DNA from: Campylobacterales bacterium
GTDB taxonomy: Bacteria > Campylobacterota > Campylobacteria > Campylobacterales > JAADDG01
Assembly: GCA_027009865.1 (NCBI GenBank)
Contig: JALVCR010000117.1
Coordinates: 1 to 32,979, forward strand
Length of the DNA stretch: 32,979 nt
Direction of reading: 5' to 3'
Positions 15,764 through 20,106 of this stretch are shown in pieces (the stretch's first letter is position 1; each line of letters begins with the position of its first letter). Both the position numbers and the translations under genes were made by a program. The notes below the pieces were generated by a model. It had not been told where the DNA came from. It worked only from the letters and a program-made list of their open reading frames with translations, and ran no database searches.

Positions 15764-16513
15764 TTATAAAGCTATAAAATATGGGTTTTTTAGATTTTCT
15801 TTATTGTAAATTAGAGGTTTTCTATCTTCATATCTTACGATTTTTCTTTTGCACTCTCTAAGTATTGCATCTCCCGCGGCGGTATCCCACTCCATCGTAG
15901 GGGATAGTCTTGGATAGATATCGGCTAAATTTTCGGCCAAAAGAGCAAATTTAAGAGAGCTTCCTTTTGAGATTATCTCTATCTTTTTTTCAGTTTTTAT
16001 AGAAGATATGAAATCTTTTGTCTCTTTGGATAGATGAGAGCGGCTTGCTATAACTCTTAGAGTATTATGTTTTTTTATAAAAGGAAGAGGTTTTTCATTT
16101 TTGAAAGCTCCGCTTCCTTTTTTCGCAAAGTATAAATCTTTTAAAATGGGAGCATAAATTACTCCCAAAACCGGCTCTTGTTTATGTATCAAGGCTATAT
16201 TTACAGTAAATTCTCCGTTTCTTTTAATAAACTCTTTAGTTCCGTCAAGAGGATCTACAAGCCATAAATATTCCCACTCTTTTCTTATTTTATATGGTAT
16301 TTTAGCGCTCTCTTCAGAGATTATCGGAATTTTGGGATATAATTGATTTAGGCTTTCGCAGATTATTTTATTTGATATTAAATCGGCTTTCGTTAAAGGG
16401 GAGTTATCCTCTTTCTTTTTTACTTCAAAATTTTGATTGTATATTTTTAAAATCTCCTCTCCAGCTTCTATGGCAATGGAGGTTATCTTTTTGATATCTA
16501 TTTTATCAAGCAT
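15764..16513 (-). CDS. cysQ: 3'(2'),5'-bisphosphate nucleotidase
   Basis: SPLTKAD, SEE, WLVDPLDGTKEF, SRSH, GSSLK and TMEWDTAAG. Confidence 0.95.
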   Translation of the reverse strand: MLDKIDIKKITSIAIEAGEEILKIYNQNFEVKKKEDNSPLTKADLISNKIICESLNQLYPKIPIISEESAKIPYKIRKEWEYLWLVDPLDGTKEFIKRNGEFTVNIALIHKQEPVLGVIYAPILKDLYFAKKGSGAFKNEKPLPFIKKHNTLRVIASRSHLSKETKDFISSIKTEKKIEIISKGSSLKFALLAENLADIYPRLSPTMEWDTAAGDAILRECKRKIVRYEDRKPLIYNKENLKNPYFIAL

Positions 16514-17102
16514 CTATAATTTTCCTCTTTCTTAAAAAAGATACTATTTTATCCACGCTATCCTTTAAACTCTCTTTATGGGGTTTTATATGAATTTGCG
16601 GATTTTTAGGTTTTTCATAAGGAGAGTCTATTCCTGTAAAATCTGCAATCTCTTTATTTAAAGCCTTTTTATAGAGCCCTTTTGGATCTCTTTTAATACA
16701 GATTTCTAAAGGAGTGTCTATAAAAACTTCTATAAAATTTTTGGGATTAATAATCTCTTTTACCTTTTCTCTATCTTTTTCAAAAGGGGAGATGAAAGCT
16801 GTAATCGTTATTATTCCAGCATCCAAAAAGAGCTTAGCTACTTCCGCTATCCTTCTTATATTCTCTTGTCTATCCTTTTTGCTAAAATGTAAATCTTTAT
16901 TTAGCCCTTCTCTTATATTGTCTCCGTCCAATAAATAGGTGTGGTATTCTTTTTGGTTTAAAAAATACTCAAGTTCATTTGCAATAGTGCTTTTACCGCT
17001 TCCGCTTAAGCCTGTCAGCCATATTACGCACCCTTTTTGCTTTTTTATTTTTTCTCTATCTTCTCTTTTTACTTTATGGGGATGAGATACTATATTCTTC
17101 AC
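16506..17102 (-). CDS. cysC: Adenylyl-sulfate kinase
   Basis: WLTGLSGSGKST, LDGDNIR, FISP, RDPKGLY and FTGIDSPYE. Start placed at GTG 17102, a GTGA overlap with the cysN stop. Confidence 0.95.
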   Translation of the reverse strand: MKNIVSHPHKVKREDREKIKKQKGCVIWLTGLSGSGKSTIANELEYFLNQKEYHTYLLDGDNIREGLNKDLHFSKKDRQENIRRIAEVAKLFLDAGIITITAFISPFEKDREKVKEIINPKNFIEVFIDTPLEICIKRDPKGLYKKALNKEIADFTGIDSPYEKPKNPQIHIKPHKESLKDSVDKIVSFLRKRKIIDA

Positions 17103-18478
17103 TCTTCTATCTCTTCTATCGACTTGCATCCCCATTCTGGAAACTGCTCTCTTATAAATTGATTTAAAGCTATTTCGCTTGGGGAATAAATTCTCTTTTT
17201 TTTGTGTTTTGTAGATTCTCCCACTATCATTCCGGCAGCCGAAGTATTATTGGTAATTTTATCTATTAGTATAAAAGAGCCTGTTTTTTTGCTTTTTTCA
17301 TAAAAATCGAAAGCTATCTTTTCGCTTAAATCTATCTGCACTCTTGCTATGTCGTTTAATCTTAATCTTTTGCTCTCTATTTTTTCCCAGCTGTTTACAT
17401 CTTTTTTGAAAAGTATTCTGCTAATTGTGGCGTTAGTCTCTTTTGTGTATATTTTTAAAATATATTCTCTGTTTTGCAGCTCCTCTTCATCCATCCATAC
17501 TATCATAGCTTCAAAGGAGTCGTTGAATTTTGGCTGTATCTCTCCCTCTTTTGTTATCAAATCGCCTCTGCTTATGTCTATTTCATCCTTTAAAGTTAAA
17601 GTTATAGCTTTGCTTTTTTGAAAAGTTTTATTTTCCGGATTTATAGGATAGATTATATCTTTTATGAAACTCTCTTTTTTTGAGGGGTATATTATGATTT
17701 TATCATCTTTTTCTATCTCTCCGCTGGCTATATTTCCAGCATATCCTCTAAAATCAAAACCTCTGTTTACATATTGAACCGGAAATCTAAAACTTGTGAA
17801 ATTGCTTTTTAAAATCTTTACATTATCAAGGTATGATAAAAGAGCCTCTCCATCATACCAATTCATATTTTTGGACTTTTTAACTACATTATCTCCCTTT
17901 AGAGCACTTATTGGAATATAATCTATTTGTGTATGAAAATCTTTGTAGGGAAGAGAGAATTTTAATTTTTCAAACATCTTTTTATAATCTTCCACTATTT
18001 CAAAAAATCTCTCTTTAGAGTAGTTTACAAGATCCATTTTGTTAATAGTTACCACTATATTTCTTATTCCAAGAAGAGTTACCAAAAATGAGTGTCTTTT
18101 TGTCTGAGTTAAAACCCCTTTTCTGGCGTCTATCAAAATGACAGCCAAATCAGCCGTACTTGCGCCGGTAGCCATATTTCTTGTATACTGTTCGTGTCCG
18201 GGCGTATCGGCAATTATATATTTTCTTTTTTTTGTAGAGAAGTATCTGTAAGCTACATCTATCGTTATTCCCTGTTCTCTTTCGCTTTGAAGCCCATCTA
18301 CCAAAAGAGAAAAATCTATTTCATCTTCAGAGTTTTTATACTTTTTTGTTTCATTTTTAGCCTGCTGTATCTGATCTTCATATATTTTTTTGCTGTCGTA
18401 TAGAAGTCTTCCAATGAGTGTTGATTTTCCATCATCCACGCTTCCGCAGGTTATGAATCTAAGGAGATCCTCTCTCAT
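17099..18478 (-). CDS. cysN: Sulfate adenylyltransferase large (GTPase) subunit
   Basis: CGSVDDGKSTLIGRLL, EREQGITIDVAYRYF, DTPGHEQYTRNM and NKMD; no fused APS kinase. Confidence 0.96.
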   Translation of the reverse strand: MREDLLRFITCGSVDDGKSTLIGRLLYDSKKIYEDQIQQAKNETKKYKNSEDEIDFSLLVDGLQSEREQGITIDVAYRYFSTKKRKYIIADTPGHEQYTRNMATGASTADLAVILIDARKGVLTQTKRHSFLVTLLGIRNIVVTINKMDLVNYSKERFFEIVEDYKKMFEKLKFSLPYKDFHTQIDYIPISALKGDNVVKKSKNMNWYDGEALLSYLDNVKILKSNFTSFRFPVQYVNRGFDFRGYAGNIASGEIEKDDKIIIYPSKKESFIKDIIYPINPENKTFQKSKAITLTLKDEIDISRGDLITKEGEIQPKFNDSFEAMIVWMDEEELQNREYILKIYTKETNATISRILFKKDVNSWEKIESKRLRLNDIARVQIDLSEKIAFDFYEKSKKTGSFILIDKITNNTSAAGMIVGESTKHKKKRIYSPSEIALNQFIREQFPEWGCKSIEEIEE

Positions 18479-19371
18479 TAAAAGTATCCTTCTATTTTCT
18501 TTCTCTCCATGCTTCCTTCCTGATCTTTGTCTATCAGTCTCCCCTCTCTTTCACTATTTTTTGATAATTTCATCTCTTCTATAATTTCATCTAAATTTTT
18601 AGCGTTAGATTCTATAGCTCCGGTTAAGGGATAACATCCAAGAGTTCTAAATCTTACCATTTTTTCTTTGGCTCTTTTTTTAATCTCTTCTGGAACTCTG
18701 TCATCGTCTATTAAAATTTCAGCTCCTTCATATTCGGCTACTAGTCTCTTTTTTGCAAAATATAAAGGCACTACCGGAATATTTTCTTCTTTTATATATT
18801 GCCAAATATCAAGTTCTGTCCAATTTGAAAGGGGAAAAACTCTTACGCTCTCTTTTTTGTTTATATGCGTATTGAAAAGATTCCAAAGTTCAGGGCGCTG
18901 ATTTTTTGGATTCCATCTGTGGTTTTTATCTCTAAAACTAAAAATCCTCTCTTTTGCTCTGCTCTTTTCCTCGTCTCTTCTTGCCCCTCCTATTATTGCA
19001 TCGAATTGATATTTATCCAACGCTTTTTTTAGAGCCTGGGTTTTCATAATATCTGTATGAATTTTGCTTCCGTGAACAAAGGGGTTTATATTCATTTTAA
19101 TCCCTTCGGGATTTGAATATACTATCAAATCCACTCCAAGCTCTTTTACTCTTTTGTCTCTAAATTCAATCATTTCTCTAAATTTCCAAAGAGTATCCAC
19201 ATGCAAAAGAGGAACGGGAGGTTTTTGCGGATAGAAAGCTTTTATAAGCAGATGCAGCATCACGGAAGAATCTTTTCCTATACTATAGAGCATAACGGGA
19301 TTTTTAAAACATGCTACAACTTCTCTTAAAATATAGATACTCTCTTCTTCCAGTCTTTTTAAATGGCTCAT
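18478..19371 (-). CDS. cysD: Sulfate adenylyltransferase small subunit
   Basis: [36 protein letters not shown] and C-terminal EGYF. Confidence 0.96.
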
Positions 19372-20063
19372 CTTAAATTCCCTAAAAGCTCATTTAAAAT
19401 AGGCTCTTTAAAATTTATATACTCCAAAATTTTTTTATCTGCTTCTACTTTTATCTCCTCTTCTCCTCTTGGGTCGTCTTCTGGTCTTACTCTTTTTTGA
19501 TTTTTTATAAACTCTATCTCTTTTGGATTGAAAAATTTGGAGAGAAATTCAAACAAGCCTTCGTTTAAATTGGATGTTTTTAAAATAGTTAAATTTTGAG
19601 GAAGGTTATATCTTTTCCAGAAATCATCTGTTCCGTTTTTTAGTATGTCTTCTAAAATAGGTTTTGGATTGTCAAAAATATAAAGTATCGTTACATAAGA
19701 TAATTTCCCAAATCTTAACTTTTCGTTTTCAAAATCTTTTACTTCATCTGCCCAGTTTTCATTCCATAATTTTATAAATTCATAAAAGGATAAATTTTCT
19801 ATATCCGCATTTTTAAAGCCTGGAAAAGTTTCCGGCCTTCTTCTCCACCATCCGTAAAGATAGTGGGATTCATACCATTTAAGCGGCTCTCTTAGAGTAA
19901 GAAGTCTTGGATATTCTTTATACTCTTTTGGAATATCTTGTGCGTATGCGTGTTTGTCCGCTATCTCTTTTATATCATCATATAATTTTTCTATATTTTT
20001 AGTTATAAAGGTTCCTCCGGTTTTAGGGGCGTGGATAAATACAAAATCTTTTGTGGCTATCAT
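19368..20063 (-). CDS. PAPS-dependent sulfotransferase (Sulfotransfer_2-like)
   Basis: 5'-PSB loop [10 protein letters not shown] and 3'-PB motif [14 protein letters not shown] overlap with cysD. Confidence 0.8.
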
Positions 20064-20097
20064 TCTTTCTCTCTTTTGGAAAATGATTTTAACGGAA

Positions 20098-20106
20098 ATT
20101 ATAGCA
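20098..20106 (-). promoter_or_regulatory. Extended -10 promoter of the sulfotransferase-cys operon
   Basis: TGCTATAAT on the minus strand, about 35 nt upstream of the ATG. Confidence 0.6.

Follow-up and report, generated by a model that had tools for sequence, protein, structure and literature searches.

Here we describe a five-gene operon in the 32,979-nucleotide contig JALVCR010000117.1 of a Campylobacterales bacterium. We call this whole stretch the window; it is contig C117 of an assembly, denoted G000, of 1.97 Mb in 319 contigs with an estimated completeness of 99.79%. Five open reading frames (ORFs) run on the minus strand from position 20063 down to 15764 in the order sulfotransferase-cysD-cysN-cysC-cysQ, tightly coupled to one another and preceded by a promoter-like motif, as follows.

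19368..20063, minus strand: lead ORF, predicted soluble sulfotransferase of 231 amino acids dependent on 3'-phosphoadenosine 5'-phosphosulfate (PAPS), from family profile, structural model and residues K14/H38/R58/S66
18478..19371, minus strand: cysD, ATP sulfurylase small subunit (TIGR02039, 482 bits vs a cut-off of 396.6)
17099..18478, minus strand: cysN, ATP sulfurylase GTPase subunit (TIGR02034, 560 vs 336; PRK05124, 613 vs 590)
16506..17102, minus strand: cysC, adenosine 5'-phosphosulfate (APS) kinase, GTG start (TIGR00455, 263 vs 138.7)
15764..16513, minus strand: cysQ, 3'-phosphatase of 3'-phosphoadenosine 5'-phosphate (PAP) (TIGR01331, 290 vs 228.8)
19368-71, minus strand: lead ORF/cysD junction, ATGA overlap
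18476-80, minus strand: cysD/cysN junction, TAATG
17099-102, minus strand: cysN/cysC junction, GTGA overlap
16506-13, minus strand: cysC/cysQ junction, ATGCTTGA overlap
20098..20106, minus strand: predicted extended -10 promoter-like motif TGCTATAAT, 34 nt 5' of the lead ATG
15750..15758, minus strand: second TGCTATAAT, after cysQ and before the next gene (100 amino acids), at the downstream edge of the cassette

Reading of the sequence places all four gene overlaps and the TGCTATAAT motif exactly where the original prediction for this DNA had put them, and from the coupling we infer co-transcription of the five genes. The motif upstream of the lead gene is, judged by its sequence, beyond chance, because TGnTATAAT is kept upstream of the lead-gene orthologue in two relatives (G003 and G034) and is enriched before ORF starts: 99 of the 218 such sites in the genome lie no more than 150 nt upstream of one, against a random-position baseline of 6.3%. 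A generic sigma-70 scan does not list the lead site; that scan yields no excess over shuffled sequences (26 vs 23.7 +/- 5.3). The second motif is likely the promoter of the 100-amino-acid gene that follows, and TGTTATAAT occupies the equivalent place in G003. A scan found no terminator-like site after cysQ, which leaves the transcript without a defined 3' end. The GC content of the five genes (0.31-0.34) is in line with that of the genome (0.333).

CysD, CysN, CysC and CysQ each score above their own NCBIfam curated cut-off. cysN is an ORF separate from cysC, with no APS kinase fusion, and cysC most likely starts at the GTG at 17102, because this start forms the GTGA overlap with cysN; an in-frame upstream ATG at 17135 is the alternative. 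cysC is the sole APS kinase copy over cut-off in the genome, and a genome-wide check for a second cysDN returned one cysN and a single cysDNC set. Several other Campylobacterales cassettes have, between cysN and cysC, a second APS-kinase-like gene that is fused to DUF2061 (e.g., L013:3613-4338, L113:1132-1854, L170, L171, L172 and L174), which is absent from those of G000 and G003.

The lead ORF had been called a cytoplasmic sulfotransferase, to be checked against the Sulfotransfer_1/2/3 profiles. This direct check failed: Pfam gave no sulfotransferase family for the lead protein or four close homologues, even at E<=10, and NCBIfam gave no match for the lead ORF. Profile and structure searches were therefore needed. 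A word-indexed search finds only 5 close relatives of the lead ORF, and a profile of six close homologues reaches 893 cluster representatives at E<=0.001. From this family we assembled a 148-row alignment (A2) in which the window protein is joined by three close homologues and by 144 of 150 listed hits, with six short or atypical hits left out. At E<=0.01, Pfam recognizes Sulfotransfer_2 in 91/148 and Sulfotransfer_1 in 40/148 of its members, and within the family such matches occur only in distant members. The lead ORF carries the motifs HAPKTGGT and REP..WYES; H38, R58 and S66 are invariant in all 148 rows and K14 is kept in 147. The stretch P13-K14-T15-G16 corresponds to the 5'-phosphosulfate-binding loop PKxG(G/T)(T/S) and aligns to YPKSGTT (K48) of the cytosolic sulfotransferase (SULT) SULT1A3. 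Indeed, the A2 profile matches cytosolic SULT structures in the PDB at E~1e-6, and counting along the printed alignment to 1cjm (SULT1A3) pairs H38 with H108, R58 with R130 and S66 with S138. By analogy with SULT enzymes, in which we take the equivalents of K14, R58 and S66 to bind PAPS and that of H38 to be the catalytic base, K14 in the PKTGGT loop would bind the 5'-phosphosulfate, R58 and S66 the 3'-phosphate, and H38 would deprotonate the acceptor hydroxyl.

Structural comparison points the same way. A first model built from 6 sequences had a predicted local distance difference test (pLDDT) score of 67.8 and was not used for searches; the model that was used reaches 95.7. Foldseek against the PDB returned no match to it at E<=0.001, its listed top rows still being sulfotransferases, and in the VIA structure search of 48,161 chains all of the top 23 rows have the sulfotransferase fold. 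The best match is 3f5f, a heparan-sulfate 2-O enzyme (Z 11.5, root-mean-square deviation (rmsd) 3.7, 191 amino acids), followed by 5t03, a heparan-sulfate 6-O enzyme (Z 10.4, 196 aligned residues). A kinase reading was rejected, the best kinase reaching Z 6.1 vs 11.5 for the best sulfotransferase. In Atlas, the lead ORF has a template-modelling (TM) score of 0.87 to a cluster with 25% Sulfotransfer_2. The protein has no hydrophobic segment (maximum KD19 0.63), and the enzyme would act in the cytoplasm because it is without a signal or membrane segment. The ratio of nonsynonymous to synonymous substitution (dN/dS) among four orthologues is about 0.13-0.24, a rough figure with dS near saturation, by which the gene is under purifying selection; nine near-identical members, 8 of them full length, make up its sequence cluster. 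On the strength of sequence and model, then, the lead ORF encodes a protein of sulfotransferase fold that carries PAPS-binding and catalytic residues and belongs to an uncharacterised subfamily, and its predicted activity agrees with the original call. PF00685, PF03567 (no control genome gave a positive signal for this family), PF13469, five fetched queries and a home-built profile found no other sulfotransferase in G000.

The original prediction had also pointed to the lack of a reductive branch beside the operon, and this extends to the whole genome, in which PF01507, tblastn and aprA searches found no APS or PAPS reductase. Only cysD exceeds the PF01507 cut-off in G000, with a weak second match in an ORF that is MnmA-like by sequence, and tblastn with Campylobacterales CysH matched cysD alone (26%) and no cysH; the CysH search gave a signal in 14 of 14 positive-control genomes. 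Likewise, cysH was found in none of the four genomes of the genus, two of them just 82-86% complete, and aprA exceeded its cut-off in 0/4, while cysK/M is present in all four. On the evidence of sequence, the lead ORF therefore has its sulfotransferase match by profile and fold, and no PAPS reductase was found that the sole cysDNC set could feed.

The picture gained from the window holds for the window, which has no reductive genes, but not for the genome beyond it, which has two NirA/Sir-like (NIR_SIR) genes and one Sat-like gene. Both NIR_SIR genes score below all cut-offs; one (contig C306) sits behind a NasA-like nitrate reductase, and the other (L008:936-1751 on contig C283) lies behind pcm, runs off its contig and has orthologues 61-68% identical in G001 and G003. 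Their products are each 26% identical to the Sir of a cysK-cysH-cysD-cysN-sir operon in another relative (G029), and NCBIfam is unable to separate nitrite from sulfite reductases here because that operonic Sir itself scores best as NirA. With no CysH found, these enzymes have no known route by which to receive sulfite from PAPS, although the assembly is fragmented. The Sat-like ATP sulfurylase (L016:9933-11165 on contig C23), also below NCBIfam cut-offs, lies between response-regulator-like and pgpA-like genes; it keeps the HxGH motif and has MAAK and GKN at the places where we would expect QxRN and GRD, and may thus be unable to activate sulfate. UDP-sulfoquinovose synthase was considered as a sulfur sink and rejected, the query having no match in G000.

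With a sulfotransferase fold in the lead and no PAPS-reducing gene found, the cell likely sulfates a molecule of its own, and we consider it highly probable that the operon is a self-contained sulfation unit. CysDN would convert sulfate to APS and CysC would convert APS to PAPS; the lead protein would then pass the sulfonyl group of PAPS on to a sugar hydroxyl in the cytoplasm, and CysQ would turn the PAP by-product into AMP. Cysteine would be made from external sulfide via CysK/M. Given such a unit, the acceptor is probably a glycan, perhaps a nucleotide sugar or lipid-linked repeat unit that would be sulfated before export, with the polymer built by unlinked loci. The full reading, a sulfation unit with a cell-surface polysaccharide precursor as its acceptor, appears to us somewhat more credible than not.

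The genomic context of the wider family suggests this acceptor. We classed 104 loci, 78 of them genomic (from the best 80 of 208 confirmed among 600 matches listed) and 26 metagenomic. The 99 loci outside Campylobacterota, many of which are near-copies, comprise 39 with glycan genes, 35 in a radical S-adenosylmethionine (SAM)/AMP-ligase cluster, 2 with PAPS genes only and 23 unclassed. In both a quick tree (111 rows) and a careful tree (45 hand-picked rows, near-copies and most long branches dropped), the Campylobacterota clade joins glycan-context rows; the loci of its nearest neighbours contain flippases, Wzt, glycosyltransferases (GT2/4/8/9), pyruvyl transferases and methyltransferases. A 97/85 branch of the careful tree parts the Campylobacterota clade from the radical-SAM clade, to which one row (L041) had been assigned after the quick tree was seen, and forcing the two clades together is weakly rejected (approximately unbiased (AU) test, p 0.037). 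Because the nearest relatives lie in polysaccharide clusters, with modest tree support, we take a surface glycan produced at another place in the genome as the most likely acceptor. For the sulfated product proposed at the outset, the comparative evidence thus favours a glycan of the cell surface. Candidate acceptor pathways lie on other contigs of G000 (manC with wzm/wzt-like genes, gmd with wbaP, Wzx and Wzc loci, a PglK-like gene and PseB), and no single one stands out.

Relatives offer a second line of comparison. The lead enzyme occurs in 3/40 of them (G001, G003 and G034), and the A2 profile found it in 0/250 further genomes of the phylum, a sample in which two families predominate. In G003 all five genes recur at the identical site; in G001 the lead gene sits elsewhere, behind cysN, a DUF2061-cysC gene and cysC, and it therefore stays linked to PAPS genes in two differing gene orders. 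The copy in G034 (L015:637-1338 on contig C72) is an intact orphan with the promoter motif.

Across the 41 genomes we count 19 full cysN loci, spread over 18 genomes. In nine of them cysC is linked and cysH is not (G000, G002, G003, G007, G008, G016, G017, G029:C44 and G036), in another nine a second PF01507 gene is linked and cysC is not (G004, G005, G010, G012, G026, G032, G033, G040 and G029:C32), and the one in G019 is assignable to neither class; G029 carries one of each type (C44 cysC-type, C32 cysH-type). The second PF01507 gene is confirmed as CysH in G029 and assigned from position and family in the other eight, and as the 41 genomes are kin the 9-versus-9 split is a pattern rather than a statistic. 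Glycan genes adjoin four of the nine cysC-type loci: that of G002, where cysD-cysN-DUF2061:cysC ends a Wzy/Wzc/GT4 cluster, and those of G007 (GT4/GT2), G016 (kps capsule) and G008 (rmlC only). Directly before cysD in the kps capsule cluster of G016 lies another sulfotransferase-like gene (Atlas TM 0.78), found in 1/41 genomes; we rejected its product as a member of the lead-ORF family, since comparison with the A2 profile was not significant and it thus represents a different family. A separate glycan cluster in G017 (L179:1-6235, contig C77) combines a Sulfotransfer_3 gene with genes resembling those of CysH and, below cut-off, of UDP-sulfoquinovose synthase, a set that suggests a role for PAPS reduction there in providing sulfite for a sulfo-sugar, not for cysteine.

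Several observations weigh against a glycan-sulfating unit as we have set it out. No glycan gene adjoins the operon or the enzyme in G000, G003 or G001, and five of the nine cysC-type loci are likewise without one (one of these on a 5.6-kb contig). G034, estimated 100% complete in 90 contigs, has the enzyme alone, intact and conserved at 61% identity, with no cysD, cysN or cysC found; conversely, G002 has the PAPS genes and no sulfotransferase detected by A2, PF00685, PF03567 or PF13469. Sulfate uptake is unexplained, since a 571-amino-acid SLC13-type permease of G017 used as query had no match in G000, and an assembly in 319 contigs could lack a gene. Furthermore, the 35 distant loci in the radical-SAM/acyl-ligase cluster point to small-molecule chemistry, and for 23 more the context is unclassed. 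Lastly, the branch leading to Campylobacterota is very long, at 2.2 changes per column, and of atypical composition, which makes its placement unsure and a lean only.

The alternative that survives best keeps the PAPS-plus-sulfotransferase unit and replaces the acceptor with a small molecule or lipid, as in cholesterol sulfation by Bacteroides BT0411-0416; we regard it as unlikely, though a serious contender. Its appeal lies in a stand-alone layout like that described in the available passages on BT0411-0416 (PMC9417993), with no adjoining glycan gene, in PDB sequence-profile matches that are cytosolic small-molecule SULTs, and in the third or so of distant loci (35/99) placed with AMP-ligase, HemN-like radical SAM, short-chain dehydrogenase/reductase (SDR) and GrpB genes. 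Set against this, the best structural matches are glycan sulfotransferases, though by small Z gaps of 1-2; glycan genes accompany the nearest relatives, whose union with the radical-SAM clade is weakly rejected; and Campylobacterales cysC-type cassettes recur in glycan loci.

The radical-SAM cluster is a subject in its own right. It is conserved, whole or in part, in the 35 loci (L022, L026 (3426-10101), L036, L038, L047, L050, L053, L058, L062, L065, L066, L079, L093 and others) and comprises an Rv2949c-like chorismate lyase, an AMP-binding ligase, a HemN-like radical SAM protein, a sulfotransferase, an SDR, a second sulfotransferase, GrpB and often a MATE protein, in hosts that include Pseudoalteromonas, Shewanella, Lysobacter, Xanthomonas, Archangium and Thermoanaerobaculia. 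Our literature search found no description of such a sulfotransferase cluster, which, going by its gene content, may represent an undescribed sulfated-metabolite pathway, possibly more novel than the operon itself.

Less probable still, and in our view rather improbable, is that the cassette has been displaced from a sulfated-glycan locus and is a remnant of it, with PAPS supply and enzyme loosely coupled and the natural acceptor missing or strain-variable. Variation in cassette site and gene order among the four genus members would fit this, as would the enzyme of G034 without PAPS genes and the PAPS genes of G002 without a detected enzyme; five intact, overlap-coupled frames, a conserved promoter motif, a dN/dS of about 0.2 and a cluster of nine near-identical members, 8 full length, speak against it. 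Very unlikely, finally, is sulfate assimilation by cysDNCQ by way of an APS/PAPS reductase that is unassembled or non-canonical and feeds a NirA/Sir-like enzyme, with the sulfotransferase as a side branch: two NIR_SIR genes that NCBIfam cannot tell apart as nitrite or sulfite reductases, a fragmented assembly and CysQ, which also acts in sulfate assimilation, leave room for it, and the failure to find cysH or aprA in the four genus genomes (two 82-86% complete), the mere 26% identity of both NIR_SIR proteins to the operonic Sir and the lack of a linked cysC in the assimilatory loci of relatives tell against it.

Cobalamin genes and a DHH/flhA block flank the operon, and a Pfam scan of the window proteins bears out that no glycosyltransferase or exporter adjoins it. 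Proximity to flhA was rejected as a hint of a flagellar glycan because the rpsO-rrf2-flhA-DHH block is kept in G001 and G034 without a neighbouring cassette. The genes at 8540-9247 (a methyltransferase) and 10003-11043 were rejected as operon partners because both are present in G001, G002 and G003 and not in G034, and so track the genus, not the enzyme. The first of these and 5857-6597 encode two similar class I methyltransferases, and 10003-11043 encodes a 346-amino-acid protein without a Pfam family; 8540-9247 and 10003-11043 occur in all three genus relatives and were not found in G013 or G034. A flavoprotein at 6782-8260 (plus strand), with an N-terminus like that of twin-arginine translocation (Tat) substrates, resembles sulfide:quinone reductase below cut-off. 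Upstream of the putative operon promoter, a toxin-antitoxin-like insert at 20122-20797 (plus strand), not at this site in G003, contains a Gp49/DUF891 toxin gene split in two (20122-20301 and 20344-20529) together with an intact helix-turn-helix (HTH) antitoxin gene (20516-20797).

More broadly, we tentatively propose, at slightly less than an even chance, that Campylobacterota make sulfated surface glycans via a Pfam-invisible sulfotransferase subfamily that works in trans, on a polymer made by an unlinked locus, that the phylum's cysDNC sets without cysH, which genome surveys label incomplete sulfate assimilation, are dedicated sulfation modules, and that linkage to cysC versus cysH is a near-clean marker of sulfation versus assimilation. 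A literature search, with most subscription papers outside its scope, found no sulfated glycan or such cassette in Campylobacterota. The operon gives a handle on an apparently uncharacterised sulfotransferase family of 893 clusters whose Campylobacterota members escape Pfam, and it yields a testable prediction, a sulfated surface glycan in this phylum. For metabolic annotation, it suggests that cysDNC without cysH in Campylobacterota ought not to count as a partial sulfur-assimilation pathway. There is, furthermore, a demand for small soluble bacterial glycan sulfotransferases in making sulfated polysaccharides, according to the available passages of the Vibrio study (PMC11641403).

Within the phylum, Sulfurimonas autotrophica has the same inventory, CysDN and CysC without CysH/CysI, read as an incomplete assimilatory pathway; the available passages of that paper do not propose sulfation (PMC4584964). 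The original prediction likened the operon to rhizobial NodPQ/NodH and Xanthomonas RaxPQ/RaxST. What stands of this is the donor logic, a dedicated PAPS supply for a sulfotransferase, which is all that they have in common, and the closer analogues are BT0411-0416 and the PAPS regions of marine sulfated capsules. NodQ and RaxQ are CysN-CysC fusions and NodH acts on a Nod factor made by linked genes, whereas here cysN and cysC are separate and no acceptor-synthesis or export genes adjoin. RaxST, moreover, is co-operonic with a type I exporter, as described in the portion of that account available, and the operon here has none (PMC4216712). The heparan sulfate 2-O- and 6-O-sulfotransferases (3f5f and 5t03), which we take to be eukaryotic Golgi enzymes, are the best structural matches, yet at 13-16% identity and an rmsd of 3.7-3.9; moreover, a common fold does not reveal what the substrate is.

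In Bacteroides thetaiotaomicron, BT0411-BT0416 combine PAPS genes with a cholesterol sulfotransferase (Le et al., 2022, PMC9417993). As far as the available parts of that paper describe it, this unit, like ours, is a compact, stand-alone set of PAPS genes with one soluble sulfotransferase and an acceptor encoded outside it. It differs in that BT0412 is a proposed sulfate importer, whereas the five-gene operon here has no permease, and, compared by description, in that BT0416 sulfates cholesterol whereas the lead protein has no Pfam sulfotransferase match and its nearest relatives are glycan-linked. The sulfated-capsule clusters of Cobetia marina KMM 1449 (PMC11766843) and Vibrio sp. KMM 8419 (PMC11641403), in the passages available, share cysD, cysN, cysC (and cysQ in Cobetia) together with one or more sulfotransferases, PAPS being read as the donor and CysQ as the remover of PAP. 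Their genes lie inside a capsule cluster whose sulfated polymer has been solved, an arrangement that the G016 locus resembles, whereas the operon described here is detached from glycan genes, is known from its genes alone and keeps cysN and cysC separate, unlike those capsule regions. With no permease and no linked glycan genes, it belongs to neither the Bacteroides nor the Cobetia/Vibrio type. Because stand-alone PAPS-plus-sulfotransferase units have already been published in other phyla (Bacteroides, Cobetia and Vibrio, in the passages cited above), the architecture is not surprising in itself; what is new here is the enzyme subfamily and its host.

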